The notes: generated by a model not told the origin, from the sequence alone. 64,000 nt of DNA from an uncultured Acidimicrobiales bacterium (GCA_964512645.1 CAZEJS010000001.1:825-64824); one strand, 5' to 3'. Shown: positions 24,358 through 56,420, counted from the stretch's first letter. Made by a program: numbers and translations.

Positions 24358-24380
24358 CCTCTGGGACTACTAGGAGGGAG

Positions 24381-37185: not shown

Positions 37186-37212
37186 GCCGCACCCCGATAC
37201 CAGGAGCTTGAG

Positions 37213-38679: not shown

Positions 38680-38713
38680 CGTAATAAAACGAGGGCGGAC
38701 AACGCCCGCCCTC
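38680..38713 (-). terminator. Rho-independent terminator ending the Wood-Ljungdahl operon after acsE (convergent junction with the fdh block)
   Basis: GAGGGCGG-acaacgc-CCGCCCTC stem. The U-rich tract GUUUUAUUA follows only on the minus-strand reading. Confidence 0.65.
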
Positions 38714-38777: not shown

Positions 38778-39659
38778 TTAGAGCTCGAGGTAGGAGGCCG
38801 CGAAGAGGGTCTCCTCGTGGAAGAGCTTGACGGTCTTCTTGATCGCCAGCTGCAGCGGGTCGCTCAGGTCGAGCTCGCCCTCCTTGAGCCCCTCGGCGAT
38901 CTGCACCAGGTCGTACTCCGGGCTCTCCATGCGCGCGACCGCCATCAGTTTCTCGTCATTGGGGTCGACGATCGCCGCGTCCATGCCGTGGCCCATCAGG
39001 GCCGCAAGGTAGATACGGTTGACGAACTCGGCGTTCTCGGTGGTGAGCCCACACTTGTTGCTGACGTTGGACAGGCCGCAAACGAGGTGCGGCTTGTCCG
39101 GGAGCTCGGAGAACATCTGGGTCGCCACCAGGAGGGCGTGCACCTGGTCCTGGGCTACCCCAATGGGGAGCACGATCGGGTCGATCCAGTAATCGTCGTG
39201 CCCGATCCCCGCCGCCTCGAACGCCATCATCAGGTTGTAGCCGTTGGTGACACGCTCCTCGGCGTCACGGGGCACACCGGCCTCGCTTGTGCACAGTCCC
39301 ACCACCTTGGCGTTGTACTCCAGGGCCAGCGGGATGAGACGGTCCATCCGCTCCTGGACGTTGGAGATCGAGTTGATTATCTTGGGGTTCTTGCCCACCT
39401 TGAGGCCGGCTTCCATCGCGTCCATGTTCATCGTGTCCAGCGACAGCGGCAGGTCGGTGACCTCCTCTATCGTCTCCACCATCCACTGCATGAGCTCGGG
39501 GCCGTTCTTGGTGGCCGGCCCGAGGTTGATGTCTATGCAGTCGGGCTTGCCCTCGAGCTGGATCGTCACCATGTCCTGGATGGGGCCCTTTTCGCGGGCG
39601 TTCATGGCCTCCTTGATCTTCGTGGTGATCACGTTGACCTTCTCGGCGATGATGTACAT
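38778..39659 (-). CDS. acsE: Methyltetrahydrofolate:corrinoid iron-sulfur protein methyltransferase (pterin-binding / DHPS-like fold)
   Basis: 293 aa pterin-binding TIM barrel. Last gene of the acs operon. Confidence 0.85.
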   Translation of the reverse strand: MYIIAEKVNVITTKIKEAMNAREKGPIQDMVTIQLEGKPDCIDINLGPATKNGPELMQWMVETIEEVTDLPLSLDTMNMDAMEAGLKVGKNPKIINSISNVQERMDRLIPLALEYNAKVVGLCTSEAGVPRDAEERVTNGYNLMMAFEAAGIGHDDYWIDPIVLPIGVAQDQVHALLVATQMFSELPDKPHLVCGLSNVSNKCGLTTENAEFVNRIYLAALMGHGMDAAIVDPNDEKLMAVARMESPEYDLVQIAEGLKEGELDLSDPLQLAIKKTVKLFHEETLFAASYLEL

Positions 39660-39712
39660 CTCTACCTCCTTGCCATCTCCCTGTTCATACGTCCGTCGTA
39701 TGCGCCATCGCG

Positions 39713-40543
39713 CTATTCCAACATCCTGTGGGCGAAGTACGAACTCCGCACCAGGGGCCCGGCGGCAACCGCCTCGAACCCCATCGCCAGCGCAGCCTCC
39801 TCGAGCGAAGCGAACTCCTCCGGTTCCCAGTAGCGCTCCACCGGCACGTTCGCCGCGCCCGGCCTGAGGTACTGTCCGACGGTCAGGAGCCTGCAGCCGG
39901 ACTCCAGCAGGTCCTGCATCAGGGCGAGGACCTCGTCCCGGCTCTCCCCGAGCCCGACCATCAGTCCGCTCTTGGTCCGGAACCCCGCCCCGGCGGCCCT
40001 GGATAGCACCCCCAGTGACCTGGAGTAGGCGGCCTGCGGCCTTGCCGTGGCGTAGAGCCTCTCCACCGTCTCCACGTTGTGGTTGAAGACGTCGGGCCCG
40101 GCGGCCAGCACCGTGTCCACGTCGCCGCTCCGCCCGGCGAAATCGGGTACCAGCACCTCGGTCGTCACCCCGGGCGCCGCGTCCCTGACGGCCTCCACCA
40201 CGGCGGCGAAATGCCCCGCCCCCCCGTCGGGCAGGTCGTCCCTGGTCACCGACGTCACCACGACGTGCCTCAGGCCCATCTCCGCGGCCGCTTTCGCCAC
40301 CCTCTCAGGCTCGTCTTCCTCGAGCGGACCGGGCGTCCCCCCGGGGACCGCGCAGAACCCGCAGTCCCTGGTGCACCTGTCGCCCATTATCATGAACGTC
40401 GCGGTCCCCGCTTCGAAGCATTCCCCGCGGTTCGGGCACTTGGCCCCTTCACAGACCGTGTTCAGGCGTTGCTCCGCGAGGACTCCTTCAACCCTGGACA
40501 CCTGCGGCCCGCACCTGACAGGCCTCAGCAGCCAGCGGGGCAT
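39713..40543 (-). CDS. lipA: Lipoyl synthase
   Basis: ORF 39713..40573. ATG 40543 gives MPRWLLRPV... (compare E. coli KPEWMKIKLP). CEGAKCPNRGEC auxiliary-cluster cysteines and radical-SAM CTRDCGFC motif. Confidence 0.85.
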   Translation of the reverse strand: MPRWLLRPVRCGPQVSRVEGVLAEQRLNTVCEGAKCPNRGECFEAGTATFMIMGDRCTRDCGFCAVPGGTPGPLEEDEPERVAKAAAEMGLRHVVVTSVTRDDLPDGGAGHFAAVVEAVRDAAPGVTTEVLVPDFAGRSGDVDTVLAAGPDVFNHNVETVERLYATARPQAAYSRSLGVLSRAAGAGFRTKSGLMVGLGESRDEVLALMQDLLESGCRLLTVGQYLRPGAANVPVERYWEPEEFASLEEAALAMGFEAVAAGPLVRSSYFAHRMLE

Positions 40544-40573
40544 CCGGTCCCTGGAGCGAGGCTCCGACAGCAT

Positions 40574-41626
40574 CTACGAGTACCTCGCCCGCATCGCCTC
40601 CGAGACCTCCCGGGTCAGCACCAGCGCCCTCTCGGCGACCTCCATGCTCGCGGGCCCCAGCCCGCAGGACGGTGAGACCAGCGACCTTGCCGCGACAAGG
40701 CCCCTGTCGATCCCCTGCCCCTCCAGCACGTCGAACCCGCTCTCCAGCATCGAGACCAGCTCGGCAGATGTGATGCTGGTAACGCTCTCGTCCTTGGGGA
40801 TGACCCCCCAGGCCAGAGAGCCACCGCGCTCGAGGTGCCTGGCGATGTCGGGACCGTACGCAACGAACGGCTCCATGTACTCGAACGCATCGAAGTGGAC
40901 CACGTCCACCCCAGTGGCGAACACGAGCGACCAGTCCGTGTTCCCGCAACAGTGCACGCCCGTGATATCCGCGCCGCACCCCGCGAGGCACTCGGTGATG
41001 TCGTTGACGACCTGCTCCCTGCTGACGCTTATGAGCGCAGAGCCCACTGAATGCAGGTAAGGCTCGTCGTAGAACATCACCACTTTCGCCCCGGGCGCGG
41101 CCTTTCTCAGCTCTCGGCTCTGCCACGCGCCCTTGAGCGCGAGCCCCTTCACTATCGCCTGCTCCAGGTCAGGATGGTAGATGCTCGCCTTCCTGTTCTG
41201 GTCGGTGACGGTGAGCCCGAACGAGGCAGGGCCCGTAACGTGGCCTTTCACATATGGCCTGCTCTCGAGGTCGCTCGCGAAAGCTCCCCCGAGGAACGCC
41301 GCAAGCCCGTGTGCGTACTCGCCCGATATCGCGAACCTGTCCAGGTCTTCGGCGATGACGGCCTCGTAGAAACTCTCGAGCTCCTCCGGAAGCGCGTCGT
41401 CCACCTGGAACCACAAGCGCTTGGCGGCCTCGTCAACCCTGATCCCCGGAAGGCCCTGCGAGTACTGGGCGTACATGTTCTCGAGGAAGCCTATCTTCGG
41501 CAGCTGCGGCCAGGCCGCTACCTCGCCGAAGGCTTCCAACATGAGCTTCACGGCCTGCTCAGCATCCGTGTGCGGCAGGCTACCGATAGCTATCATCGCG
41601 AACCACGGTTCGAAATCACCAGTCAT
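40574..41626 (-). CDS. Core-MetE-like protein: stand-alone cobalamin-independent-methionine-synthase catalytic (C-terminal) domain of the URO-D/CIMS fold. Candidate methylcorrinoid:homocysteine methyltransferase
   Basis: 350 aa. Motifs parallel the MetE C-terminal domain: VKGHVTGPASF (MetE ...GP.T.), VVMFYDEPYL (IQIDEPA), GVHCCGNTDW (HMCYS Zn ligands), SPSCGLGP (PDCGLK). No N-terminal folate-binding half. Confidence 0.7.
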   Translation of the reverse strand: MTGDFEPWFAMIAIGSLPHTDAEQAVKLMLEAFGEVAAWPQLPKIGFLENMYAQYSQGLPGIRVDEAAKRLWFQVDDALPEELESFYEAVIAEDLDRFAISGEYAHGLAAFLGGAFASDLESRPYVKGHVTGPASFGLTVTDQNRKASIYHPDLEQAIVKGLALKGAWQSRELRKAAPGAKVVMFYDEPYLHSVGSALISVSREQVVNDITECLAGCGADITGVHCCGNTDWSLVFATGVDVVHFDAFEYMEPFVAYGPDIARHLERGGSLAWGVIPKDESVTSITSAELVSMLESGFDVLEGQGIDRGLVAARSLVSPSCGLGPASMEVAERALVLTREVSEAMRARYS

Positions 41627-41718
41627 AGGGCCCGGCCCCTTCCCGCCTTCTGACCACTCTGCATCACCAGATGTCTGCTATGCGCAAAGGGGTCTGACCC
41701 CGACTGCGATCAGTGCCC

Positions 41719-42669
41719 TTAAAGGGCGTTGATATCCAGCTCTGCCTCTTCGAGGATCCTCGGTACGACGTCCTCCTTGCCGATGGCCATGATGTGCACG
41801 CCGTCAGCGAGGTTCTCTTCGCGGATCCGCTTGATGTGCCGCGCCATGATCTTGATGCCAACATCGATGCCTTTGCCCTTCTCGGCAGCCGACATCTCTT
41901 CGATGAGGTCATCGGGCACGAAGACGCCAGGTACGTTCTTGTTCATGTACTTGGCCATGCCCGCCGACGTGAGCAGAACCAGGCCCGCCTGCATCTTGAT
42001 CGGGTACTGGCGCGCGATCTTCATGAACTTGGCGAAGTTGTCCATGTCGTAGATCGCCTGGGTCTGGAACCACTCGGCTCCGGCCTCGACCTTCTTCTCG
42101 AACTTGATGAGCTGCGGCTCGATGGGCACGGCCTCGGGCGTCACGATGGCGCCCTTGTAGAACTTGACGGGAGCGTTCATCTCGTTCCCGCCGAGGTCCT
42201 TGCCCTCCTCCATCAGGCGGATCATGTTCAGGAGCTGGACCGACTCGAGGTCGAATACCGCCTTGCACTCCTTGTGGTCGCCCGTGGGGACGCTGTCGCC
42301 GGTGAGGCACAGCACGCTGCGGACGCCCCGGGTGTAGGCGAAGAGCATCTCGTTCTCCAGCGACATGCGGTTGCGGTCACGGCAGGTGACCTGCAGGTTC
42401 GGCTCGCCGCCTCTCTCGAGGATTATCAGCGCGGTAGCCAGCGACGGGTAGCGCATCACCGAGCTCTGGTTGTCGGTGATGTTCATCGCGTGCACCTTGT
42501 CCTTGAGGAGGTCGACGTGCTCGATGACCTCCTCGATGTCAGGTCCCTTGGGGGGCCCGATCTCGCCGGAGACCAGGAACTTGCCGGACTCCAGAACCTC
42601 CTGAATGGAAGGCTTAGAGTTCTTGACCTTGAGTTCTTCCCATACCTTCTCTACGCTCATCCTATTCAC
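41719..42669 (-). CDS. metF: Methylenetetrahydrofolate reductase, acetogen-type large subunit (alternative ATG start 42660)
   Basis: MTHFR TIM-barrel (AEWFQTQAIYD, ...LVLLTSAGMAKYMNKNVPGVFVP). Overlaps the metV stop. Confidence 0.85.
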   Translation of the reverse strand: MNRMSVEKVWEELKVKNSKPSIQEVLESGKFLVSGEIGPPKGPDIEEVIEHVDLLKDKVHAMNITDNQSSVMRYPSLATALIILERGGEPNLQVTCRDRNRMSLENEMLFAYTRGVRSVLCLTGDSVPTGDHKECKAVFDLESVQLLNMIRLMEEGKDLGGNEMNAPVKFYKGAIVTPEAVPIEPQLIKFEKKVEAGAEWFQTQAIYDMDNFAKFMKIARQYPIKMQAGLVLLTSAGMAKYMNKNVPGVFVPDDLIEEMSAAEKGKGIDVGIKIMARHIKRIREENLADGVHIMAIGKEDVVPRILEEAELDINAL

Positions 42670-43324
42670 CGCCCTTCACGCGCTCGATCACCAGGCGGCC
42701 CGGCTTCATGACCGGGTTCCAGTTCTTGGGCGGCTGGTATTCCTTCATCTTGGACAGCTTGCCCTCCCGCTCGAGCTGCTGATAAATGAGGGTCCACGCG
42801 CAGTCCTTCTCGGGGTCCACCTCGCACTTCCCGTCGTTGGTTCCGCCGCACGGCCCGTTGAGGATGCCCTTGTGGCAGCGGGTCACCGGGCATATCGCGC
42901 CGGTCATCTCCAGCACGCAGTCTCCGCACAACTGGCACTTCTCCTCGAACTGGCCGACCCGCATCACGTTGCCGAGGAACAACGTATCGTTGGAAGGAAA
43001 CACGGGTTTGTCCGTGGCGTTCCTCGCCGCCTGGGTACCCGCCCCGCAGGACATGACAAGGAAGGCGTCGGCCTTCTCGACCTCGTCCTTGTGGGCGCGG
43101 AACTCCTTCTTGATGTCCAGCTCCTGGCAGCCGGTCTCGGGGACGAAGCCGCCGGTAACGACCTTGCCCTCGGCCGTGAGCTTCTCGGTCATCTCCTTAA
43201 TCTGGTCTTCGCCACCGGTCTGGCACGCGGTGGCACAGTCGCCGCAGCCGATCAGGAAAACGCTCTTGGCGTCTTCAAGCTCTTTGAGGATGGCCTCAAA
43301 GGCTTTCTGCTTGGTTATGATCAC
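42662..43324 (-). CDS. metV: Methylenetetrahydrofolate reductase small Fe-S subunit
   Basis: 220 aa, Cys-rich (CGDCATAC, CQLCGDCVLEMTGAICPVTRC, CGGTNDGKCEV). GTG start preceded by AAGGAGGAG. Confidence 0.85.
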   Translation of the reverse strand: MIITKQKAFEAILKELEDAKSVFLIGCGDCATACQTGGEDQIKEMTEKLTAEGKVVTGGFVPETGCQELDIKKEFRAHKDEVEKADAFLVMSCGAGTQAARNATDKPVFPSNDTLFLGNVMRVGQFEEKCQLCGDCVLEMTGAICPVTRCHKGILNGPCGGTNDGKCEVDPEKDCAWTLIYQQLEREGKLSKMKEYQPPKNWNPVMKPGRLVIERVKGGE

Positions 43325-43360
43325 CTGCTCCTCCTTTCAATGTCCGCTCCTTCGAACGCT

Positions 43361-44713
43361 CTATGAGCTCGCCACGTAGTTGCGCAGGTAAGAGGAAATG
43401 TCCGCCGCCTCGCGCGGCCCTATCAGTATCTCCCAGTCGGCGAGCTCCTCGTCGAGCTCTCCGGATATCTGCGCCACGTACCCGGGGATGATCAGCTTCC
43501 GGTGGCCGACCTTCTCGGCGATCCCCGAGGTGTTGACGAACTTGGCAATTATGTCCGGCACGAACTTGCCGGCGGCCCAGGCGGTAAGCACCGACTGCCC
43601 CTCGGAATCGACCACGCCGAGCCAGGCGTCGACCTTGGAGGCCTCGATCTCCCCGGAGACGATGAAGTACGTCAGCGAGAAGTTGGTGGTGACCATCACC
43701 GGCGAATCGGGACCGGGGCTGCCGATCTCGTAGAACTTGGCGTCGACCGCCATCGGCTTCTGGGGGTCGGTGTACACGTTCTGGATCTCCACCTGCAGCG
43801 GGTACTGCAGCCACGCCTCGGCGCTGGAGAGCACCACGATGTCCGCGTACTTGGCGATGTAGACCCCGGCGTACGCGCCCTGGAGGAACTCGTCGTCGGT
43901 CTCCTCCGCCGGGAGCGTGATGATCGGGAACCCGAACGGCTTGAACTTGGCGGTAAGGGCGCCCTTCCTTATCTGGATAACGGCCTCGAAAGTCTCCTTG
44001 AGGGTCCTGGTGCCGGGGTCGAGGACCAGGTCCTTGAGCTCCATGCCGGCCGCCTTCTCGGACAGGTCGGCCAGGTCGTCCAGGGAAGCCCCTTTCAGCA
44101 CCAGCGGCAAGCCCTTCTCCTTCGCCAGCGCGCCCATGGCGTCAATGTTTGCCGCCGTCGCGCAGTACATCAGCGGGTTCTTGTCGCCGATCTTCTCCAG
44201 CGCGGCCTTCATGACCCCGGCGTCCTCGGTCATGGGCATCAGCGCGCAGTCGGTCATGCCCGCGACCTTTCCGGCGAAGTCGGCGAACTTCCCGGCGTCC
44301 CCGGACTCGCACTTCAGCGCCACCAGCTTGACCTCGAGGTGCTGGCCCACGCGGTCCCAGGAGTCCGCGTTCACCGCTTCGATCTTGACCTTGAGCTCGT
44401 CCTCGGACATCGCGTCCGAGACCAGCACTCCCATGCCCGGAGGGTTCATGAACCGCTTCTCGTGCCTGAAGAGCACCAGCTCCTCGCCTGTGGTGAACTC
44501 CTTGGCCCCCTGTCCGATTATTACTCCCCTCACCGGCGGGGCGGCCGCGTCGGCCAGGGCCGCCTTCGCCTCGTCCGAGACGTGCGGGCAGTCTTCGAGC
44601 TTCGCCTGGCCGCCCGCGAGCTTCATCGCGAACGCGAGACAGGTGGGTAGCTTGCACTCACCGCAGTTCGTCTTCGGGAGCAGCTTGAAAATATCGAGAC
44701 CGCTCAGTGCCAT
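43361..44713 (-). CDS. acsC: Corrinoid iron-sulfur protein large subunit
   Basis: 450 aa. N-terminal [4Fe-4S] motif CGECKLPTC, cobalamin-binding C-terminal Rossmann region. Confidence 0.9.
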   Translation of the reverse strand: MALSGLDIFKLLPKTNCGECKLPTCLAFAMKLAGGQAKLEDCPHVSDEAKAALADAAAPPVRGVIIGQGAKEFTTGEELVLFRHEKRFMNPPGMGVLVSDAMSEDELKVKIEAVNADSWDRVGQHLEVKLVALKCESGDAGKFADFAGKVAGMTDCALMPMTEDAGVMKAALEKIGDKNPLMYCATAANIDAMGALAKEKGLPLVLKGASLDDLADLSEKAAGMELKDLVLDPGTRTLKETFEAVIQIRKGALTAKFKPFGFPIITLPAEETDDEFLQGAYAGVYIAKYADIVVLSSAEAWLQYPLQVEIQNVYTDPQKPMAVDAKFYEIGSPGPDSPVMVTTNFSLTYFIVSGEIEASKVDAWLGVVDSEGQSVLTAWAAGKFVPDIIAKFVNTSGIAEKVGHRKLIIPGYVAQISGELDEELADWEILIGPREAADISSYLRNYVASS

Positions 44714-44819
44714 CTCCCTACTCCTTTCGTCCCATCTTTACCGGTCCTATTCGTTTTGCGTACCATCCCGCTCGCCCTCCCCCCCGTGGGGGAGGGCCGG
44801 CGGGGGTGTTCCATATCGC

Positions 44820-47006
44820 TTACGCGAGCATCGGGTCCATCGTGAGCGCGGGGTGCTCCTTCTCCGTCAGGAACGGCAGGATCTCCTCCTCGGTCACCCC
44901 GACGGTCTCGTCGGCGATCTTGTCGATGAAGTCGGGAGTTCCCAGCTCCTCGGCCCGCCTGTCGAGCTGCTCGCGCAGTGTCTCCTTGAGCTCCTTCGGC
45001 ATCCAGACGATGCGGTGGAAGCCGCCGTCGGCGCTGATGAACTTCTTGGAGGTTATGTAAACTTTGCCGATGCCGACGAATCCCGGGGTGACGTTCCCTC
45101 CGCCAACCGAGCCGGCGAGCGTCGAGAAGGACATGCCGCATGGAGTCTCCTTGCCGGTGAACTCCCTGTTGACGATCATGACCCCGTTGCATATCGGCAG
45201 GAACGCCACAATGCACTCGAAGCAGCCGCACGACGTCATCGGATCTTCCATCATCGTGTAGGCGTTGAACTTGTCCAGCTTCTGCCCGGAGTTATCGTAA
45301 ACGAACTTGTTGACGTTGACCCACTGGCCCTTGTCCTCGTCGATAGCGTCGCCCTTGGGGATGGGCTGGTTGGGTCCGGTGGGGTCGATCTCGTAGGCCG
45401 CCTTGCAGTCGAGCCAGTTGTAGGCTCCGCAGAGCCCGAGGCGCTCGGGCGTGACCACGCAAACGTGGGTGGGCGCGAACGACTGGCAAAGCGTGCACGA
45501 GTAGTAGATGTCCGTGGTCTCGTCGGTCATGCCGGCGGTGCGCTCGTCGCGCTCCGCGTACTTGGCGCGCGCATTGGCCAGCCACTCTTTGCACGGAGCC
45601 TCCTCTGTGTAGAGAGTGACCTCGACCTTGTCGACTATCGCCGGGAACTCGCCCAGCAGCTTGGCGTGGAGTATCTCGCCGTAGTCCTTGATCTTGAAGC
45701 CCTTGGACTGGGCCTTCTTGCTGATGCGCGTCCAGACGATATCGCGCTGGCCCATGTGCCAGATGCCCTCGGCCCCGTTGATGAGGTGGTGGCACTGGCG
45801 CTCGAGGATCGACTCGAAATCCTCCTGCATCTTCCGGCCGGCCACGTGGATCACGATTCCCAGCGGAAGGGCCGCGCCGGCCTCGATGTCGTCGATCTCC
45901 GGCCCGACCACGGTGATCTTGCCGTCCTCGACCTCGTCCATCTCCTTCATCTCCACGAACTCGAACGCCGGAGTGATGTTGCCTCCGAACTGGCAGTACA
46001 TGTCCTCCTTGCGGATGCGCTCGCCCTCGAAGGCCGGCCCGTAGGCCATGGGGATGGGGACCTTGGTGACCTGTATCTTCAGACCGCGAACCTCGACCGC
46101 CTTCTGGACGATCTGGTCGTGGGGTATGTTGGAAACCACGTGCTCGTAGGTGCAGACTCCCGTTGGCAGGATCTCCGGTATGGGCGTGTCGGCGATCGTC
46201 GGGAAGCCGTAGTTGATAGCGCCCGCGGCGTTCGCGTACCACTCGTCGGTGACCTCGCCCAGCGCCATGACAAACGCGAATATCCGGTTCTTGTTGTAGA
46301 GCAGGACCTTGCGGTAGTCGCCCGGCTGCGCGCCCCCGAAGCTCATCGCCGCGCGGGCGGCGAACCCCAGCGAGTACACCGCGGAGCCTATCTCGCGCCC
46401 GTAGGGCACGATGCGGGTCTCCCAGCCGAGCTGGACCCCGATGCTGTCGAGCTGCTCGGCCACCGTGGTGCCGTTGAAATTGCCGCTCGTCCAGACGTAG
46501 AGGTTCTTCTCCTGGAGTTCCTTGACTATGCTCTCGGCGGTCTGGGGATCGGGCGCCGAACCTGCGAGCGCGCAGAAACCGGGCGCCGATCCGTCGACGA
46601 ACTCGACGCCCCTCTCGCGCATTATCACGTCGTCGGCGGCGCCCAGCCATATCCCGTCGACCGGGTTGGGGCCGTCGATGTACTTGATGGCCTCTTCGAG
46701 CTCCTCCATGAACAGGGTCGCCATCCCCGCGTCCAGCCCCGGCCCCAGGTAAGGGGTCCAGAGGCCGTCCCTGGGGAGAGGGGGGATCAGGTCCTCGGCG
46801 ATCTTCATGACCTTGCCGAAATCACCGAGTTTCTCGACCTTCTCGCCGGTCATGGCGTAGATTATCGGGAGGTAGTAGGCGGTGTTGGGAAACGCCACCT
46901 CCTGGTTCTCCCCGTGCTTCTGCAGGGCCTCGTCGATCCGCGCAGCTACCCTGTCGTGGATGGCGTGCGCTCCTCTGATCGCGGCACTTAGAATTATCTT
47001 GGACAT
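44820..47006 (-). CDS. acsB: Acetyl-CoA synthase (A-cluster subunit)
   Basis: 728 aa, collinear with Moorella AcsB along its whole length (AYYLP..., CTLCQSFAPTHVCVVTPERLGLCGA, MTSCGCFECIVAFLP, FIDKIADETVG). RBS AAGGAGGAG. Confidence 0.95.
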   Translation of the reverse strand: MSKIILSAAIRGAHAIHDRVAARIDEALQKHGENQEVAFPNTAYYLPIIYAMTGEKVEKLGDFGKVMKIAEDLIPPLPRDGLWTPYLGPGLDAGMATLFMEELEEAIKYIDGPNPVDGIWLGAADDVIMRERGVEFVDGSAPGFCALAGSAPDPQTAESIVKELQEKNLYVWTSGNFNGTTVAEQLDSIGVQLGWETRIVPYGREIGSAVYSLGFAARAAMSFGGAQPGDYRKVLLYNKNRIFAFVMALGEVTDEWYANAAGAINYGFPTIADTPIPEILPTGVCTYEHVVSNIPHDQIVQKAVEVRGLKIQVTKVPIPMAYGPAFEGERIRKEDMYCQFGGNITPAFEFVEMKEMDEVEDGKITVVGPEIDDIEAGAALPLGIVIHVAGRKMQEDFESILERQCHHLINGAEGIWHMGQRDIVWTRISKKAQSKGFKIKDYGEILHAKLLGEFPAIVDKVEVTLYTEEAPCKEWLANARAKYAERDERTAGMTDETTDIYYSCTLCQSFAPTHVCVVTPERLGLCGAYNWLDCKAAYEIDPTGPNQPIPKGDAIDEDKGQWVNVNKFVYDNSGQKLDKFNAYTMMEDPMTSCGCFECIVAFLPICNGVMIVNREFTGKETPCGMSFSTLAGSVGGGNVTPGFVGIGKVYITSKKFISADGGFHRIVWMPKELKETLREQLDRRAEELGTPDFIDKIADETVGVTEEEILPFLTEKEHPALTMDPMLA

Positions 47007-47045
47007 GTAAACTCCTCCTTTTCTTTCTCGTCAGTGCCTCAGAGG

Positions 47046-48998: not shown

Positions 48999-49046
48999 CT
49001 GTCCTCAACTCCTCGCTCTTCGTGAGCTTCCGTGGCCTCGTCGGGC

Positions 49047-49985: not shown

Positions 49986-50065
49986 GTGATTCCACTTCCT
50001 TTCTACGGTTCAACCACCGTGCGCCGCATTGATATATGTCAAACACGCTCGGCGCGCGCGCCTCG

Positions 50066-50974
50066 TCAGTCCCCCGCCTGCATCTTGCAGGCGGTCAGCG
50101 CGTTCTTGAGCAGCATCATGTTGGTTACCGCCCCGACCCCGCCGGGGACGGGGGTGATCGCCCTGGCCTTCTCCTTCACGTTGTCGAAGTCCACGTCTCC
50201 GACCGTCCTTGTCTTCGGCTTGCCCTTGTCGTTCAAAACGGGGTTGCCCTCGTCGTCGAGCACCTTGACCCGGTTGATGCCGACGTCGATGACCACGGCG
50301 CCCTCCTTCACCAGGTCGGCGGTGACCAGCCCCGCCTTGCCGGCGGCGACTATCAGGATGTCCGCGCCGGTGGTGTGCCTGGCCAGGTTGCCCGCCTGGG
50401 AAGTGAAGATATGGGTAACCGTGACGGTTGCGTTGCGGTTCAGGGCGAGCATCGCGACCGGCTTTCCGACTATGTTCGAGTGCCCGACGACGACAATCTC
50501 GGCGCCCTCGAACTCGACGCCCACCCTGTCCAGCAGCTCGATGCATGCCGACGGGGTTGCCGGGGCCAGCGTGGGCTCGCCCAGCAGCAGGCGTCCCATG
50601 TTGGCCGGGTGGAAGCAGTCGATGTCCTTGTCCTCGCGGATGTTGCGGATTACCGCCGAGTCGCTGATGTGCTCGGGGTACGGGCGGAGCGGCAATATCC
50701 CGCTGACGGCGGGGTCCCCGTTCAATTCCTTGACGATATCGATGACCTGCTCTTCGGTGGTCTCCGCGGGCAGCGTCTTCTCGATGTAGTTGAAGCCTAC
50801 CAGCTCGCAGTTCTTCTCCACCTGGCCCCGGTACATCTTCGACCCGAAGTCGTCGCCCACCAGCAGCGTCGCTATCCCGGGGGCGAGCCCTTTGGCCTTG
50901 AGGCTCTCGGTCTCGGACACTATCTCCGCTTTGATCTCGTCCGCTATGGCATTCCCGTCTATGATCTCCGCCAT
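50066..50974 (-). CDS. folD: Bifunctional methylene-THF dehydrogenase / methenyl-THF cyclohydrolase
   Basis: 302 aa (ATPSACIELLDRVGVEFEGAEIVVVGHSNIVGKP..., TPVPGGVGAVT). Confidence 0.9.
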   Translation of the reverse strand: MAEIIDGNAIADEIKAEIVSETESLKAKGLAPGIATLLVGDDFGSKMYRGQVEKNCELVGFNYIEKTLPAETTEEQVIDIVKELNGDPAVSGILPLRPYPEHISDSAVIRNIREDKDIDCFHPANMGRLLLGEPTLAPATPSACIELLDRVGVEFEGAEIVVVGHSNIVGKPVAMLALNRNATVTVTHIFTSQAGNLARHTTGADILIVAAGKAGLVTADLVKEGAVVIDVGINRVKVLDDEGNPVLNDKGKPKTRTVGDVDFDNVKEKARAITPVPGGVGAVTNMMLLKNALTACKMQAGD

Positions 50975-50984
50975 TCCATACCTC

Positions 50985-51623
50985 CTAGCCGAGTTTCTCG
51001 TAGGTCACTCTGACAACCCTGTCCTTGAGCTCGAGCGCCCGTGCAAGTATATCTTGAACGCCCGTCCATTTCTCCTCGTTGAAAGCGCCGTCCTTGATGG
51101 TCCCGAGGTTGATCTTCACGTTGAGGGCGGCGCACTGCGCGCACGCCTCCGCCAGCAGGGCTGCCACACCCGCGTCGCTCACCGCGTTGACGTTTCCTAT
51201 CTCCGCCGCGACCTCCGATAGTTTCGCGACCTCCAGGCACTGCTCCACGATGGCGTAGGGGACCATGGTGGCTTCTTTGCAGGCCGCCTGGACGGCTTCG
51301 TCCCTCTTCCGCTTCTCCTCCTCGGTTCCGCGCGGCATCTTGAAAGCTTTCGCCAGGACGGCGTACACCTCGGTGTCCTCCTGCACCAGCTCCTGGAGCC
51401 GGGCGCGCACCCTCTCCGAATCCGCGAGCAGCTCCTCGATGCGGTCCTGGACGCCTGAGTACTTCTCCTTGCCCACGGTCAGGTTCGCCACCATGCCAAC
51501 CAGGGCCGCCCCGACGGCCGCGGCAAGCGCGCTGGCCGAGCCGCCCCCGGGCTCCGGCGCGCCGGAAGCCAGCCTGTCGAGGTAGTCCACCATCGGACCT
51601 TTCACGTACATCCTGCCCTTCAC
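50985..51623 (-). CDS. fchA: Methenyl-THF cyclohydrolase (formiminotransferase-cyclodeaminase family). ORF starts on GTG 51623; ATGs at 51611 and 51593 are alternatives
   Basis: MVDYLDRLASGAPEPGGGSASALAAAVGAALVGMV matches the cyclodeaminase-domain N-terminus. Confidence 0.85.
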   Translation of the reverse strand: MKGRMYVKGPMVDYLDRLASGAPEPGGGSASALAAAVGAALVGMVANLTVGKEKYSGVQDRIEELLADSERVRARLQELVQEDTEVYAVLAKAFKMPRGTEEEKRKRDEAVQAACKEATMVPYAIVEQCLEVAKLSEVAAEIGNVNAVSDAGVAALLAEACAQCAALNVKINLGTIKDGAFNEEKWTGVQDILARALELKDRVVRVTYEKLG

Positions 51624-51661
51624 CCCCTGTAGCGCCCCCGTTCGAGGCGGCAGTCAGCTCT

Positions 51662-52426
51662 TCAACGTTCCAGCAAGCCGTCCATCATCCGCCGTACCGC
51701 CTGGAGGGCGGCCGAATCGGCGCCGATTTCCACCAGCGGTCTCCCCAGCTCGTCCAGCTCGGACACCTCCGGGTCGTCCGGCACTATCCCCGCCAGGTCG
51801 ATGTCGAGTCCCGCCACCTCCGCTGCCACCGCCTCCGACAGCTCGCCCCTCACCCGCGAGAGCACCAGGCGGTAGCGCCCGACACCGATGTCCATCTCCC
51901 GGGCGAGGTCCCTTATCCTCATCGCCGTGGCCAGCCCCCTGTGCGATGGGTCGCTCACTATGAACAGCACATCGACACCGCGGGTGGTGCGCCGGCTGAG
52001 GTGCTCCATTCCCGCCTCGTTATCAATTACCAGATACTGGTAGTTCTTGTTGAGCCTTTCCAGGAACACCCTGAGCATGTTGTTGATCGCGCAGTAACAC
52101 CCCGGGCCTTCGGGCCTGCCCATGCTTATGAGGTCGACGTCCGGCGTCTCGATGAGCGCCTGTTCGATCTGCATTTCCAGGATGTCCTGCTTGGCCATTC
52201 CGGCCGGTATCTGGCCCTTCCGGGTCTTCTCGCTCATCTCTTCGCGGACGGACCCTACCGTACTCTCCAGGCTGAGGCCCAGGGCGAGGTCGAGGTTGCT
52301 GTTGGAGTCCGCGTCGACGGCGAGCACCGGCCCGAGCCCTTTTTCGACCAGGTACTTGACGACCAGGGAAGCGAAGGTGGTCTTGCCCACTCCGCCCTTG
52401 CCGCTGACGGCGAGCACCGTGGTCAA
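51662..52426 (-). CDS. cooC: CODH nickel-insertion accessory ATPase (CooC/AcsF). TTG start overlaps the RACo stop; GTG 52417 is an alternative
   Basis: P-loop AVSGKGGVGKTT, MinD/ParA-type ATPase, 254 aa. Confidence 0.85.
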   Translation of the reverse strand: MTTVLAVSGKGGVGKTTFASLVVKYLVEKGLGPVLAVDADSNSNLDLALGLSLESTVGSVREEMSEKTRKGQIPAGMAKQDILEMQIEQALIETPDVDLISMGRPEGPGCYCAINNMLRVFLERLNKNYQYLVIDNEAGMEHLSRRTTRGVDVLFIVSDPSHRGLATAMRIRDLAREMDIGVGRYRLVLSRVRGELSEAVAAEVAGLDIDLAGIVPDDPEVSELDELGRPLVEIGADSAALQAVRRMMDGLLER

Positions 52427-54399
52427 GCGGTCTCACCCCCGCCGTCCCGGCCCAGCTTCGCGCGCTCTCGCGACTCGGCCAGCCTCTCCATGACCGTCGG
52501 GAACTCCCGCGTATGGGTGTGCGGGAAGAACATCGCCGCCATGTACTGGTCCATGAACTTGGAGCTGGTCGAGAGCTCCAGGTAAGTCATCATCTTGGCT
52601 ATGCGGTCGGCCTCGCCTATCAGGCTCTTGGAGAGGGCCATCAGGTAGCTGCCGAGCAGCGACCCGTTCCCAACGAACTTGATCTTCTCGACGTCGACGT
52701 CCGGGAGCAGCCCGATGATTATCGCCTTGTCTATCTCGAGGTAGCGCCCGAAGGCCCCGGCTATGAGGATCTCCTCCACCATGTCGATGGTCATGCCGAC
52801 TTCCTCCAGGAGGATGTTGATGCCGGCGAAGATCGCGGCCTTGGCCCTCATCAGGTTGTCGATGTCCACGTCGGTTATGACGATGTCACGGTTGGTGCCG
52901 CTCTCGTCGGCCCACGCGAGCACGTACTCCCCGCCAGAATCGCTCCCACGGACCCTGGGCGTGTCCAGCTCGGTGTCGATCTTGCCCCTCTCGTCCATGA
53001 TGCCGGTGAGGAACAGCTCGGCCAGGGTGTCGATCAGCCCGGAGCCGCAGATGCCGATAGGCCGGCGGTTCCCTACGGTGATGATCATCGGCTCGAGCGT
53101 GACCTCGTTGATCCGCACCTGCTCGATCGCCCCCCTGGTGGCCCGCATCCCGTGCTTGACCCCCGCGCCCTCGAACGCCGGGCCGGCGGAGCACGAGCAG
53201 GTCATCAGCCAGTCCTTGTTGCCGAGGGCCATCTCGCCGTTGGTGCCGATGTCGATATAGAGAGTCACTTTCTCGGAATTGAACATCCCCGAGGCCAGCA
53301 CCCCGGCGACTATGTCCCCTCCAACGTAAGAGGCCACGCACGGGGTGCACCGCATGTAGACACCGGAGGCGATGCGGATGCCGATGTTGGAGGCCTTGAT
53401 CCACGGGAAGAACTGGGCCACCGGGATATAGGGGTCAACCCTGATGTAGCGGGGGTCCAGCCCCAGCAGGAGGTGGATCATGGTGGTGTTGCCCGAGATC
53501 ACCAGGTCGGTAATGCTGCAGAACTGCGTGTTCGTCTTCTCCACGACCTGCTGGATCAGGTTCCAGATGGTCTGAACCGCCGCCGACTGGAGCTTCGCCA
53601 GGCCGGTGGAACGCGTGGAATATATTATCCGGCTGATGATGTCCTCGCCGTAAGAGATCTGGCCGTTGTAGTCCGACGCCTCCGCGGTAACCTCGCCGGT
53701 CTGGAGGTCCACGAGCTGGACCGAGACCGTGGTGGTCCCCAGGTCCACTGCGAGCGCCGCCTGGCGCGGGGACGTGTCTCCCTTCTCGATTCGCACCGCC
53801 CTGAGCTCCTGGCCGCGGTCGAGCACCGTCACGGTGACGTCGAAGCTCGAGGCCCTGATGAGCCCGGGCAGCGCCTGGAGCATCGGGAAATCGATAACGA
53901 CGTCCTTCAGGCCGGCCAGGCGAGACAGCTCCCGCTTGATCCTCTCGGAGTCGCTGAGGTTATCTTCCAGTGTCGGCGGATCCATCACCAGGTGGAACTT
54001 GGTGGTGGGAGGGTTGAGCTCCCACTGGGGGAGCCTCTCCGCCCAGTCCTCCGCGGAGAGCGTGTACCCCTTGAGCGGTATCGGGGGACGGCGGGTGAGG
54101 GCGCTCTTGTCGCCCAACTGGGTCTCTATGGGCACCCGGACGTCGGCGTCGCTCTCGATGGTCGCGGAGCAGGCAAGCACGTAACCGCGCTTCACCTCCT
54201 CCTCGGAGAGCTTGGCCGCGAGCTTCTGCTTGACCTCGCCCTTCTCGACGATGACCCTGCACTTGCCGCAGTAGCCCTCGCCCCCGCAGGAAGCGTTGAT
54301 GTGCACGTCCGCCTTCATCGCCGCCCGGAGCAGGTTCTCGCCCTTGTCGACTTCTATGCACCTGTTCTCCGGGTAGAAGCAGACCCTCACTTTTTCCAT
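52423..54399 (-). CDS. Corrinoid-FeSP reductive activase (RACo-like, COG3894): [2Fe-2S] ferredoxin domain + ASKHA ATPase domain
   Basis: ORF 52423..54444. ATG 54399 (MEKVRVCFYPENRC...) is preceded by GGGAGGACGG. Plant-type ferredoxin cysteines (CGGEGYCGKCRV) then an actin-like ATPase core (AVDLGTTTV...). Located inside the acs operon. Confidence 0.8.
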   Translation of the reverse strand: MEKVRVCFYPENRCIEVDKGENLLRAAMKADVHINASCGGEGYCGKCRVIVEKGEVKQKLAAKLSEEEVKRGYVLACSATIESDADVRVPIETQLGDKSALTRRPPIPLKGYTLSAEDWAERLPQWELNPPTTKFHLVMDPPTLEDNLSDSERIKRELSRLAGLKDVVIDFPMLQALPGLIRASSFDVTVTVLDRGQELRAVRIEKGDTSPRQAALAVDLGTTTVSVQLVDLQTGEVTAEASDYNGQISYGEDIISRIIYSTRSTGLAKLQSAAVQTIWNLIQQVVEKTNTQFCSITDLVISGNTTMIHLLLGLDPRYIRVDPYIPVAQFFPWIKASNIGIRIASGVYMRCTPCVASYVGGDIVAGVLASGMFNSEKVTLYIDIGTNGEMALGNKDWLMTCSCSAGPAFEGAGVKHGMRATRGAIEQVRINEVTLEPMIITVGNRRPIGICGSGLIDTLAELFLTGIMDERGKIDTELDTPRVRGSDSGGEYVLAWADESGTNRDIVITDVDIDNLMRAKAAIFAGINILLEEVGMTIDMVEEILIAGAFGRYLEIDKAIIIGLLPDVDVEKIKFVGNGSLLGSYLMALSKSLIGEADRIAKMMTYLELSTSSKFMDQYMAAMFFPHTHTREFPTVMERLAESRERAKLGRDGGGETA

Positions 54400-54552
54400 A
54401 CTGTCACGTCCGTCCTCCCGGCCCGCAGGTGCGCCACCCCGCAACTCGGCAGGTGGCGCACCCTGGCAACGCTCTTCTTCGAAGGCCCCTGCGCCACCAT
54501 GGTCGCGGCCCGATGGCGCATGGCCGCCTGCATCGGTAAGCCTGCGTACCGC

Positions 54553-56268
54553 CTAGAACAGGCCGACAACGCGGCCGCCCTCGACCAGGTCCACCTTGTT
54601 CCCGGCGGGCTCGCTGGGAAGCCCGGGCATGGTCTTCATCTCACCGCAGAGCGGGTAGAGGAAGCCCGCGCCCACCGAGGGCCTGATCTCCCTGATGGGC
54701 AGGCGCCACCCCGTCGGACGCCCCTTCAGGTTGGGATCGTGCGAGAGCGAGAGGTGGGTCTTGGCCATGCACAGGGGCAGGTTGTCGTACCCGGCCTCGG
54801 TGAAACGCTTGATGTCGGCTTCGGCGACCGGCGAGTAATCCACCCCGTCCGCCCCGTATATCTTGGTTGCCACGGTCTCGATCTTCTCCTTGATGGAGCT
54901 GCCGAGGTCGTACAGGTACTTGAAATCTTTGGGCATGTCGCACGCCTTGACGATCGCTTCGGCGGCTTCCTTGCCACCCTCGCCACCCTTCGCCCAGACC
55001 TCGATGGGCTCGCAGAAGTCGGCCCCGGCCTTCAAGGCCAGGTCCTGCACCATCGCGACCTCCTTGTCGGTGTCGGTCGTGCGGCGGTTGACGGTGACCA
55101 CGACCGGCAGCCCGAAGAGCTTCATGTTCTCGATGTGCTTCACCAGGTTCTGGCAGCCGTCCTCGAGGGCGGGCATGTTCTCGGCGGCCTGGAGCTTCTC
55201 GTCGATCTTCTTGCCGGGCTTGGCCTCGAACGCGCCGCCGTGCATCTTGAGCGCCCTCACCGTGCTGGTGATGACCACGCAGTCGGGGGTGATGCCGTAC
55301 TTCTCCAGCACCCTGACCTTGATGTCCATCATCTTCTCGGCGCCGCAGTCCGCCCCGAACCCGCTCTCGGTGAACACGTAGTCGCACAGCTTCACCGCTA
55401 TGAGGTCCTCGACCACCGAGTTATTGCCCTGGGCTATGTTGGCGAACGGGCCGCCGTGCATGAAGCAGGCGTTGCCCTCGAGGGTCTGGATGAGGTTGGG
55501 CATGATCGCGTCCTTCAGCAGGACGGCCATGGAGCCCGCGCACTTGAGGTCGGAGGTGGTCACCGGCTTGCCGTCGTACGTCTGGGCGACGACGATGCGT
55601 GACAGCCTCTCCTTCAGGTCGTCGAGGTTCTCGGCAAGCGCCAGGATGGCCATGACCTCGGAGGCCACGGTGATGTCGAAGCCGGTCTGGCGAGGATAGC
55701 CGTTCTGCTTGCCCCCCAGCCCTACCACGATGTCGCGCAGCGCGCGGTCGCTTATATCGACCACCCTCCGCCAGGAGATCGTCATCGGGTCTATGTTCAA
55801 GGGGTTACCCAGCAGAATGCTGGTGTCTATATACGCCGCGCAGAGGTTGTTCGCCGCGCCTACCGCGTGTATGTCGCCGGTGAAATGCAGGTTCAGGTCC
55901 TCCATGGGCACCACCTGGCTGTATCCGCCCCCGGCGGCGCCTCCCTTGATCCCGAACACCGGGCCCATGCTCGGCTCCCGGATGTTGATGATCGAGCTCC
56001 TCCCGATCTTGTTCATTGCCTCCGTGAGCCCGATCGAGGTGACGGTCTTACCCTCGCCCAGGGGCGTAGGAGTTATCGCCGTGACATCGATGTACTTGGC
56101 GTTCGGGCGGTCTTTCAACCGCTCGATGACGTCGAGGTGGACCTTCGCCTTGTAGTTGCCGTAAAGCTCGAGGTCGTCCTCCTCCAGCCCGATCTTTTTG
56201 GCGATCTCGACAATCGGCTTCATCTTCGCAGCCTGCGCGATTTCGAGGTCACTTGGAACTGCTGCCAT
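54553..56268 (-). CDS. fhs: Formate--tetrahydrofolate ligase
   Basis: 571 aa (SDLEIAQAAKMKPIVEIA, PLGEGKTVTSIGL P-loop). RBS AAGGAGGGG. Confidence 0.95.
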   Translation of the reverse strand: MAAVPSDLEIAQAAKMKPIVEIAKKIGLEEDDLELYGNYKAKVHLDVIERLKDRPNAKYIDVTAITPTPLGEGKTVTSIGLTEAMNKIGRSSIINIREPSMGPVFGIKGGAAGGGYSQVVPMEDLNLHFTGDIHAVGAANNLCAAYIDTSILLGNPLNIDPMTISWRRVVDISDRALRDIVVGLGGKQNGYPRQTGFDITVASEVMAILALAENLDDLKERLSRIVVAQTYDGKPVTTSDLKCAGSMAVLLKDAIMPNLIQTLEGNACFMHGGPFANIAQGNNSVVEDLIAVKLCDYVFTESGFGADCGAEKMMDIKVRVLEKYGITPDCVVITSTVRALKMHGGAFEAKPGKKIDEKLQAAENMPALEDGCQNLVKHIENMKLFGLPVVVTVNRRTTDTDKEVAMVQDLALKAGADFCEPIEVWAKGGEGGKEAAEAIVKACDMPKDFKYLYDLGSSIKEKIETVATKIYGADGVDYSPVAEADIKRFTEAGYDNLPLCMAKTHLSLSHDPNLKGRPTGWRLPIREIRPSVGAGFLYPLCGEMKTMPGLPSEPAGNKVDLVEGGRVVGLF

Positions 56269-56420
56269 TGCCCCTCCTTAAATCCTTGCCATCAGCCCTG
56301 AAAAACCCCCGCCAGGGGGTCGTATCCAACCATGTCGGTCTGTTACCCCGGATTTCTTGTGCGCACCAACCCCTTTCGGTACTGATTCCTCATGGTATGT
56401 AACCTGCGATTTTGCCTGCC

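Follow-up and report, generated by a model that had tools for sequence, protein, structure and literature searches.

The minus-strand gene string at 38778-56268 in DNA from an uncultured Acidimicrobiales bacterium is best explained, with good confidence, as a complete Wood-Ljungdahl (WL) operon with a built-in methionine branch point provided by the core methionine synthase MesB. The window, that is, the whole stretch analysed, comprises 64,000 nt (GCA_964512645.1 CAZEJS010000001.1:825-64824); the nearest relatives carry the labels Candidatus Anoxymicrobiaceae and Actinomycetota MAGs. Fourteen tightly packed genes were found in the string by Pfam and NCBIfam searches, all with the strand, coordinates and order that a sequence-only reading of this DNA had given them. 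They are listed from fhs to acsE, together with the elements at both ends.

56459..56488 (-), promoter-like site ahead of fhs, in the gap between the divergent lpdA and fhs: TTGCAA-18-nt spacer-TATAAT, 10/12 consensus positions
56269..56455 (-), ~190-nt fhs leader containing two hairpin/U-tract elements (56449-56433, 56318-56306)
54553..56268 (-), fhs, formate-tetrahydrofolate (THF) ligase; PF01268 FTHFS, 834 bits
52423..54444 (-), RACo, reductive activator of corrinoid Fe-S protein; Fer2 + RACo_linker + Raco_middle + RACo_C_ter
51662..52426 (-), CooC/AcsF-like P-loop ATPase, nickel-insertion accessory, named from context; CbiA/ParA/AAA_31
50985..51623 (-), fchA, methenyl-THF cyclohydrolase-type protein; PF04961 FTCD_C, 216 bits
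50066..50974 (-), folD, methylene-THF dehydrogenase/cyclohydrolase; PF00763 + PF02882
49047..49985 (-), acsD, small subunit of the corrinoid Fe-S protein (CoFeSP); PF03599 CdhD, 146 bits
47046..48998 (-), acsA, CO dehydrogenase subunit; PF03063 Prismane/CODH, 549 bits
44820..47006 (-), acsB, acetyl-CoA synthase subunit; CODH_A_N + CdhC + ACS_CODH_B_C
43361..44713 (-), acsC, CoFeSP large subunit (corrinoid + 4Fe-4S cluster); PF04060 FeS + PF03599 CdhD, 320 bits
42662..43324 (-), metV, Fe-S subunit of MetVF methylene-THF reductase; PF12225 DUF5981, 124 bits
41719..42669 (-), metF, methylene-THF reductase catalytic subunit; PF02219 MTHFR, 124 bits
40574..41626 (-), mesB, putative core-MetE-type methionine synthase, 350 aa; proposed Zn ligands H224, C226, D245, C320; homocysteine equivalents S15, D186; KGH128xxG motif
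39713..40573 (-), lipA, lipoyl synthase; TIGR00510, 332 bits vs. cut-off 310
38778..39659 (-), acsE, methyl-THF:CoFeSP methyltransferase (MeTr), C-terminal extension of ~50 aa; PF00809 Pterin_bind
38693..38707 (-), terminator-like hairpin GGGCG-TTGTC-CGCCC, then TCGTTTTATT, located where acsE and an flpD-like gene converge

The gene set of bacterial WL clusters (fhs, fchA/folD, metF(V), acsA-E, cooC/RACo) is complete in this one minus-strand string. Judged from its sequence, the string is a full WL operon of the bacterial type, belonging to an anaerobic actinobacterium that is uncultured. The CooC-like ATPase matched no specific NCBIfam equivalog, and its homologs adjoin acsA in many other loci. 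The acsE product aligns over its full length with solved MeTr structures (residues 1-242 against 1-239; E = 2.3e-50 for 2e7f/4djd and 1.1e-48 for 1f6y). It is regarded as a divergent member of this group because its NCBIfam scores lie under the curated cut-offs (218 vs. 259).

The intergenic gaps range from -8 to +108 nt; metF and metV overlap by 8 nt, and the TAG stop of mesB directly abuts the ATG of lipA. These spacings, together with the promoter-like and terminator-like ends, predict a single operon of 14 genes, although a promoter that escaped recognition may lie in the 92 nt between metF and mesB. The operon had been described as bracketed by a structured leader and a terminator. A promoter-like site and, ~70 nt past the acsE stop, a terminator-like hairpin with a U-tract do lie at its ends, but support for a structured leader is weak: no Rfam family matched it, either above the gathering threshold or with the limit relaxed to E <= 10, which leaves no known riboswitch, and its minimum free energy of -64.1 kcal/mol corresponds to z = -1.51 against shuffles. 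The position of the promoter-like site is suggestive but not significant, since two such sites were seen in 19 kb against 2.4 expected by chance. Over the whole region, promoter-like and terminator-like matches are no commoner than in shuffled sequence. A selenocysteine formate dehydrogenase gene adjoins the WL string on the opposite strand.

Four more genes of the window enter the interpretation.

24348..24770 (+), gcvH; PF01597; TIGR00527, 145 bits vs. cut-off 116
56741..58150 (+), lpdA, dihydrolipoyl dehydrogenase, divergent from fhs; TIGR01350, 557 bits vs. cut-off 409; Pyr_redox_2 + Pyr_redox_dim
58998-59405 (-), NIL + 4Fe-4S ferredoxin, homocysteine biosynthesis; PF09383 + Fer4
59406-60773 (-), DUF39/HcyBio, homocysteine biosynthesis; PF01837, 507 bits; true start probably internal

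The divergent lpdA and the nearby DUF39/NIL-ferredoxin homocysteine genes had been recognised from the sequence, and the Pfam and NCBIfam matches agree; the homocysteine pair (58998..60773) lies 2.7 kb beyond the operon's promoter-like site. The only recognised lipoyl-carrier gene within the window, gcvH, had been placed 30 kb away. This holds for the distance from the fhs start (31.5 kb), but the gene lies 14 kb from acsE.

The 350-aa protein very probably belongs to the MesB family, although the case is indirect and runs through Dehalococcoidia homologs that match published residue positions. With an AF2 model of pLDDT 95, it is a single MetE-catalytic-type (beta/alpha)8 barrel without the Meth_synt_1 folate-binding domain, and it is shorter than the MesB size limit of ~386 aa. 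Its own match to Pfam Meth_synt_2 reached only E = 0.14, and no NCBIfam model matched at E <= 1. Canonical MetE (TIGR01371), a two-barrel protein of ~750 aa with an N-terminal folate domain, was rejected as an identity on the grounds of length and the missing NCBIfam match. Among 82 homologs, H224, C226 and D245 of the proposed zinc site are invariant and C320 is conserved in at least 90%; for the homocysteine residues, D186 is invariant and S15 is again conserved in at least 90%. The zinc ligands are spaced by 2, 19 and 75 residues, compared with 2, 19 and 76 in Q3Z939. Asp replacing MetE Glu665 as a zinc ligand is a signature of MesB (Price 2021, PMC7857596; Deobald 2020, PMC7005905). The 343-aa Dehalococcoidia homologs carry S15, D177, H214, C216, D235 and C311, exactly the positions given for D. 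mccartyi 195 MesB by Price et al. 2021 (PMC7857596), where 15 and 177 are the equivalents of the homocysteine-binding MetE Ser433 and Asp599. The same authors delimit the family by phmmer scores of at least 130-173 bits to DET0516/Q3Z939 (PMC7857596). The 350-aa protein matched the Dehalococcoidia "methionine synthase" P0114 with 316 bits and 45% identity, a proxy rather than DET0516 itself; the characterised D. mccartyi enzyme was not among the matches listed in the homolog searches. CoFeSP in the genome, a further criterion for MesB, is encoded here by acsC and acsD in the same string as mesB. Biochemically, this folate-independent family is defined by methyl transfer from methylcobalamin to homocysteine and by inactivity on methyl-THF.

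The neighbourhoods of mesB homologs were surveyed at 80 loci from GTDB genomes, with a 10-kb reach for CODH/ACS genes. Such genes were found at 17 loci, from Actinomycetota, Bryobacterales/Acidobacteria, Clostridia, LCP-89 and unclassified bacteria. MtnA lies upstream in 22 of the 80 and AhcY downstream in 15, while two types of SAM synthetase occur nearby (8 and 6 loci). At L009 and L041, HcyBio, NIL/Fd and mesB form a single string. All or part of the order metV-metF-mesB-lipA-acsE is seen again at L001, L002, L006, L019, L050 and L053, where MesB identity falls as low as 43%; mesB adjoins acs genes in differing arrangements in Acidobacteria, Clostridia and LCP-89. For most homologs from Chloroflexi, the surrounding 10 kb contain no WL genes, so clustering of mesB with the WL pathway is lineage-specific. 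These contexts (SAM cycle, DUF39/NIL-Fd, CODH/ACS) fit the earlier proposal that a methionine synthase is tied here to the WL pathway.

By homology, Fhs, FchA, FolD and MetVF can convert formate to methyl-THF, AcsE is the enzyme that loads CoFeSP (AcsCD) from it, AcsAB is CODH/ACS, and RACo and CooC serve maturation and repair. MesB would accept its methyl from methyl-Co(III)-CoFeSP that AcsE has just charged, and would pass it to homocysteine activated by zinc bound to His224/Cys226/Asp245/Cys320. Methionine synthesis would thus tap the methyl carrier that also supplies acetyl-CoA synthase. Homocysteine is probably supplied by the DUF39/NIL-ferredoxin pair. [quoted passage not shown] The operon fits a published prediction on the methyl source of core methionine synthases and does not represent a system of a new kind. 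The analysis covered the 64-kb window, and MetH or MetE may be encoded elsewhere in the genome.

It is unlikely that MesB here makes methionine with another corrinoid protein or a free methylcobamide as donor, its place in the operon being due to nothing more than shared regulation of C1 and methionine metabolism. The Dehalococcoides enzyme does use free methylcobalamin in vitro, but with a Km of ~240 uM, a value said to lie far above the concentrations to be expected in cells (Deobald 2020, PMC7005905). MesB paralogs may bind other corrinoid proteins, yet AcsC or AcsD occurs in 123 of 123 MesB-bearing proteomes (Price et al. 2021, PMC7857596). Most Chloroflexi homologs lie in SAM-cycle rather than acs operons; against this, mesB clusters with acs genes in at least five lineages, and in the window it lies between the methyl-THF-producing genes and the CoFeSP-loading one, sharing a predicted operon with acsC, acsD and RACo.

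The methionine branch shares its slot between metF and acsE with lipA, and TIGR00510 and the MetE-type barrel bear out the original assignment of both genes. By its motifs, the lipA product is a canonical lipoyl synthase, with a CX4CX5C auxiliary-cluster motif (C41/C46/C52), a CX3CX2C radical-SAM motif (CTRDCGFC) and the C-terminal RSSY (VRSSY). Together with lpdA and gcvH, lipA most likely adjusts GcvH, and hence the glycine cleavage/synthase system that acts on methylene-THF, to the C1 flux. This is the least certain step of the scheme, a guess that parallels the clostridial gcvH/lpdA arrangement. In unrelated lineages (the window, L030, L041 and clostridia), lipoyl genes lie inside WL or mesB strings; lipA and lpdA occur together again, independently, at L030 (lpdA-lipB-lipA between metV and metF) and L041. 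It is quite unlikely that GcvH and LpdA, rather than working in ordinary glycine cleavage, are a dedicated redox/sulfur partner of the methyl or methionine branch, which might bring electrons to the NAD(P)H-blind MetVF or reductant/sulfur to DUF39/NIL-Fd homocysteine synthesis. Such a role would explain why lipA, lipB, lpdA and gcvH recur in WL/mesB strings.

Assigning the 350-aa protein to the MT2-type corrinoid:thiol methyltransferases (MtaA/MtbA-like, URO-D), which would methylate another thiol or feed methyls into the WL pathway, is very unlikely to be correct. The best 24 Foldseek matches are all MetE, and MetE, MesD and 1ypx outscore MtaA and URO-D in both fold searches. Weak Meth_synt_2 matches occur in 18 of the 82 family members and URO-D matches in none, so that a URO-D/MtaA/MtbA identity was rejected on both profile and nearest fold, and the grouping with the MetE catalytic domain suggested earlier stands. 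The family also conserves the Ser and Asp equivalents for homocysteine, its genes occur in SAM-cycle operons and directly behind DUF39/NIL-Fd genes, and no methyl-substrate-specific MT1 or corrinoid-protein genes adjoin the gene in the window. That mesB and lipA are passengers, placed by neutral gene-order drift in a compact genome and uncoupled from the acs genes, is highly improbable: no part in the WL pathway is known for lipA and gene order varies between lineages, but the slot is kept in Actinomycetota with MesB merely 43% identical (L019, L050, L053), mesB-acs adjacency recurs in other arrangements in Acidobacteria, Clostridia and LCP-89, and lipoyl genes reappear in the unrelated L030 operon and at L041.

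A methionine branch point within a WL operon can be compared with several known systems. The window protein is only 13-18% identical to canonical MetE (T. maritima 1t7l) and MesD (Shewanella 3rpd), and it has Asp for their Glu zinc ligand. [quoted passage not shown] Clostridial acetogen WL clusters with lpdA and gcvH (C. ljungdahlii; Oppinger et al. 2021, PMC8760232) likewise place lipoyl-system genes beside metVF, whereas the window embeds lipA, has lpdA divergent from the promoter-like site and gcvH 14 kb off, and L030 has lpdA-lipB-lipA. The gene composition had been thought undescribed, which overstated its novelty: the order is conserved in related Actinomycetota MAGs, and the legend of Fig 2B in Merino et al. 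2020 (PMC7325909) names lipA, met, ftcD, fhs, folD, nuo, fdh and ligA around CODH/ACS in Actinobacteria UBA1414, RBG-13-55-18 and UBA9087. This is the gene set of the window, a likeness that the legend gives for content and not for gene order; the 350-aa gene is apparently unnamed there, since the legend contains no methionine synthase abbreviation.

In methanogens, mesB-acsC-acsD operons argue for CoFeSP as donor (Price et al. 2021 Fig 3B, PMC7857596). The window shares this physical linkage, but in a bacterial, full 14-gene WL operon, and the 80-locus survey extends it to several bacterial phyla, where the text of Price et al. describes methanogens only (PMC7857596). The nearest parallel in kind is D. 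mccartyi MesB (cbdbA481/DET0516; PMC7005905, PMC7857596), also a single MetE-type barrel of ~345 aa with a His-x-Cys...Asp...Cys zinc site, the Ser/Asp homocysteine residues and a KGHxxG motif whose His is present in the window protein too; its host has AcsCD, and CoFeSP is the predicted methyl donor. The window protein, compared with Dehalococcoidia homologs rather than with the reference enzyme, shows ~41-45% identity and falls in a separate actinobacterial subclade. D. mccartyi lacks metF and acsE and carries its gene in a SAM-cycle operon, whereas mesB of the window stands in a WL operon beside both. Because methyl-THF and AcsE are available, MesB of the window would act as a branch point and not as a bypass for missing enzymes.

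The minus strand carries an unbroken string of genes from 56268 down to 38778, as judged from an ORF listing combined with third-position GC filtering, in a window with a G+C content of 62–69%. Most of the genes were named from Pfam and NCBIfam matches, and all fourteen stand in the order proposed in the sequence-only reading:

54553-56268, minus strand, fhs (Pfam/NCBIfam)
52423-54444, minus strand, RACo, reactivator of the corrinoid iron-sulfur protein (CoFeSP) (Pfam/NCBIfam)
51662-52426, minus strand, CooC-like P-loop ATPase (Pfam/NCBIfam)
50985-51623, minus strand, fchA (Pfam/NCBIfam)
50066-50974, minus strand, folD (Pfam/NCBIfam)
49047-49985, minus strand, acsD (Pfam/NCBIfam)
47046-48998, minus strand, acsA (Pfam/NCBIfam)
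44820-47006, minus strand, acsB (Pfam/NCBIfam)
43361-44713, minus strand, acsC (Pfam/NCBIfam)
42662-43324, minus strand, metV (Pfam/NCBIfam)
41719-42669, minus strand, metF (Pfam/NCBIfam)
40574-41626, minus strand, 350-aa protein, mesB (fold, residues and homologues)
39713-40573, minus strand, lipA (TIGR00510 equivalog cut-off passed)
38778-39659, minus strand, acsE (full-length alignment to MeTr/AcsE structures)

Neighbouring genes overlap by as much as 8 nt or stand up to 108 nt apart, and the ATG of lipA directly abuts the mesB stop codon. AcsE scored under the NCBIfam cut-offs and was identified by its alignment to solved structures (E = 2e-50), while LipA is a canonical lipoyl synthase with the CX4CX5C, CX3CX2C and RSSY motifs. 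Homology shows the predicted products to cover all steps from formate to methyl-THF, the AcsE methyltransferase, CoFeSP, CODH/ACS and repair or maturation factors. A repeat search over the operon returned nothing beyond codon-usage-level matches.

A promoter-like TTGCAA-18-TATAAT lies 190 nt upstream of fhs, and a GC hairpin with a U-tract is found about 70 nt past the acsE stop. These sites are plausible rather than proven operon bounds because promoter-like and terminator-like sites were no more numerous in the scan than in shuffled sequence. The fhs leader (56269-56455, minus strand) contains two hairpin/U-tract elements downstream of the promoter-like site, at 56449-56433 and 56318-56306. 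Support for the structured leader of the sequence-only reading is weak, its folding z-score being an unremarkable -1.5. Rfam gave no match to the leader, neither at its gathering threshold nor with the limit relaxed to E <= 10, and a known riboswitch was rejected on these two grounds. The related loci end short of the 5' end of fhs. It is possible, judging from the hairpins, that the leader acts as an attenuator.

The 350-aa protein gave no Pfam match at E <= 0.001 (the sole weak match was Meth_synt_2, E = 0.14) and no NCBIfam match, and PDB sequence searches with the protein alone or with a 20-sequence profile returned nothing meaningful. MetE was reached by fold comparison only. The AlphaFold model built from the 20-sequence alignment has a mean pLDDT of 95, and in a Foldseek search of the PDB its first 24 places are all taken by MetE (best E = 5.7e-10), followed by MesD 3rpd (5e-7), MtaA (9.6e-7) and URO-D (about 1e-6). 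When 82 family members were scanned singly, weak Meth_synt_2 matches appeared in 18 (best 8e-5) and URO-D in none. On this evidence the protein does not group with MtaA/MtbA-type proteins or uroporphyrinogen decarboxylases, the outcome named as refuting in the sequence-only reading, and the MetE-type identity suggested there is supported. A word-indexed search found 1698 relatives, and an exhaustive search found 1936 cluster representatives (50% identity) at E <= 1e-3 and 381 at E <= 1e-30. Some sources name these relatives "methionine synthase" or "methionine synthase II (cobalamin-independent)". The family matches no precomputed Pfam domain or NCBIfam model, and "hypothetical protein" is the label on many of its MAG copies. 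The result is an annotation gap, with about 1900 clusters (50% identity) lying below the Pfam and NCBIfam thresholds.

MesB was defined from a characterised Dehalococcoides enzyme. In the D. mccartyi protein (DET0516, Q3Z939), the zinc ligands are at positions 214, 216, 235 and 311, homocysteine is bound at positions 15, 69 and 177, and Asp replaces Glu665 of MetE (Price et al. 2021, PMC7857596). The 343-aa CBDB1 protein has His215/Cys217/Asp236/Cys312 and a His122-x-x-Gly motif (Deobald et al. 2020, PMC7005905). Four residues of the window protein (H224, C226, D245, D186) do not vary in the 82-sequence alignment, and S15 and C320 reach at least 90% conservation; KGH128VTG is also present. The comparison with D. 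mccartyi MesB was made by residue-number concordance. Eight 343-aa Dehalococcoidia members of the family have Asp177, His214, Cys216, Asp235 and Cys311, the same residue numbers as in Q3Z939, and position 15 is Ser in seven and Thr in one. No Dehalococcoides entry was among the listed matches to the window protein, a Dehalococcoidales locus protein or a 343-aa Dehalococcoidia protein. The window protein matches a Dehalococcoidia "methionine synthase" at 316 bits and 45% identity, well over the published family threshold of 130-173 bits, which is relative to DET0516. Membership of the MesB/core-MetE family is strongly, though indirectly, supported.

Within the family, average-linkage clustering places the window protein in a separate actinobacterial subclade, with members at least 54% identical to the window protein and all others at 38-46%. 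The conserved metF-mesB-lipA-acsE slot was compared with the actinobacterial loci L019, L050 and L053. Identity is 71-73% for MetF, 56-58% for LipA and 52-53% for AcsE, but no more than 43% for MesB (L050, L053). The low value for MesB could reflect either faster evolution or replacement of one deep MesB subclade by another in this slot.

The gene context was compared across 80 loci from species-representative genomes, which were screened with the window's proteins. CODH/ACS subunit genes lie within 10 kb of the mesB homologue in 17 of them. The string metV-metF-mesB-lipA-acsE recurs, whole or in part, in six Actinomycetota loci (L001, L002, L006, L019, L050, L053), and L053 (fchA-folD-acsD-acsA-acsB-acsC-metV-metF-mesB-lipA-acsE) matches the window. 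In known MAG clades, this arrangement is conserved within the lineage. Outside this group, mesB-cooC-cooC-acsA-acsB-acsD(-acsC) is found in Bryobacterales/Acidobacteria (L033, L040, L064, L078), LCP-89 (L021) and L004, and mesB-cooC-acsA in Clostridia (L005, L027). In two Actinomycetota MAGs (L009, 8322-11020; L041, 8150-13962), mesB directly follows the homocysteine-biosynthesis pair DUF39/HcyBio and NIL-ferredoxin, and L041 has no Wood-Ljungdahl genes within 10 kb. All-against-all clustering of neighbouring ORFs, together with Pfam, places the Chloroflexi homologues in methionine-salvage/SAM-cycle strings, with MtnA-type IF-2B upstream (22 loci), adenosylhomocysteinase downstream (15), an MTAP-type phosphorylase (10), SAM synthetases (8 and 6) and a PfkB kinase (6). 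Taken together, the neighbourhoods favour a role as methionine synthase and link the gene repeatedly to the Wood-Ljungdahl pathway.

Several further genes lie near the operon:

56741-58150, plus strand, lpdA (TIGR01350, 557 bits), divergent from fhs
58998-60773, DUF39/HcyBio and NIL-ferredoxin
24348-24770, gcvH
32054-32575, plus strand, NuoE-like protein
32443-34368, plus strand, NuoF-like protein
34387-37185, plus strand, FdhA
37213-38601, plus strand, FlpD/MvhD and 4Fe-4S protein

The divergent lpdA and the nearby homocysteine genes of the sequence-only reading were both recovered, and gcvH is indeed distant, with 14 kb separating it from acsE and 31.5 kb from the start of fhs. The gene at 37213-38601 was rejected as the lpdA in question, being an FlpD/MvhD-type Fe-S protein. 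It belongs to a formate dehydrogenase module (32054-38601, plus strand) convergent with the operon. An in-frame TGA in fdhA (35542-35544), inside the motif HCARL*HAPT, suggests selenocysteine. The nuoF-fdhA block appears to be inverted in the window's lineage because it follows acsE on the same strand in L019, L050 and L053. Farther away, genes resembling LeuA (HMGL), LeuC/LeuD (aconitase) and LeuB (Iso_dh) are present as two paralogous sets (5415-12365 and 20255-23066, minus strand) and suggest a second 2-oxoacid chain-elongation pathway, e.g., citramalate/isoleucine, beside leucine synthesis. A 333-aa protein (2350-3351, plus strand) resembles E2 acyltransferases of 2-oxoacid dehydrogenases in the catalytic domain only, and no lipoyl domain was detected in it.

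The position of lipA is kept in the actinobacterial loci, and lipoyl genes recur elsewhere. L041 reads HcyBio-NIL/Fd-mesB-lpdA-lipA, with an lpdA-like gene; its 550-nt mesB-lpdA gap holds no operon-strand ORF of at least 90 aa, hence no gcvH was found there. In L030 (1-16310), from an unrelated, unclassified bacterium where MesB clusters with Clostridia-type sequences, the order is fhs-metV-lpdA-lipB-lipA-metF-fchA-folD-...-mesB-pabB-pabC-cooC-acsA, with lpdA-lipB-lipA inside the Wood-Ljungdahl operon between metV and metF. Around its mesB stand UPF0047, an OMPdecase/RraA fusion and pabB- and pabC-like genes, then cooC-acsA. This operon embeds cofactor-synthesis genes for lipoate and possibly for pABA/folate. 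In clostridial clusters, lpdA adjoins metVF and gcvH genes are present; LpdA/GcvH were weighed as redox partners of MetVF and judged unlikely (Oppinger et al. 2021, PMC8760232). The Fig 2B legend of Merino et al. 2020 (PMC7325909) includes lipA, uncommented there, in CODH/ACS neighbourhoods of related Actinobacteria. These genes are most simply read as keeping a lipoyl protein (GcvH, of the glycine cleavage/synthase system acting on methylene-THF) co-regulated with C1 flux; a narrower redox role is less likely. The window is another instance of lipoyl genes found together with those of the Wood-Ljungdahl pathway, a small puzzle.

In the proposed mechanism, MesB, without a folate-binding domain, would draw a methyl group from methyl-Co(III)-CoFeSP and pass it to zinc-activated homocysteine, which the nearby DUF39/NIL-Fd pair would provide. 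In this bacterial case metF and acsE are present and flank mesB, and MesB is a branch point rather than a bypass for missing enzymes. Since MesB is found in organisms that have MetF and AcsE, it can act as a shortcut out of central C1 metabolism, and its role is not limited to patching missing folate enzymes.

The MesB family and its predicted CoFeSP link are already published, and the functional reading of the operon is supported. The Chloroflexi SAM-cycle setting is that given for cbdbA481 (Deobald et al. 2020, PMC7005905), and CoFeSP has been proposed as the methyl donor of MesB (Deobald 2020, PMC7005905; Price 2021, PMC7857596). No paper with a biochemical test of CoFeSP as the in vivo donor was found in the literature searched. 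Methanogens have conserved mesB-acsCD operons, and AcsC or AcsD occurs in 123 of 123 MesB-containing proteomes (Price et al. 2021, PMC7857596). The window brings MesB, AcsE, AcsCD and RACo together in one transcription-unit-sized block of one organism, a convenient set of genes with which to reconstitute methionine synthesis dependent on methyl-CoFeSP. Beside the Acidobacteria, Clostridia and LCP-89 loci, it adds independent bacterial gene-context support for the CoFeSP donor.
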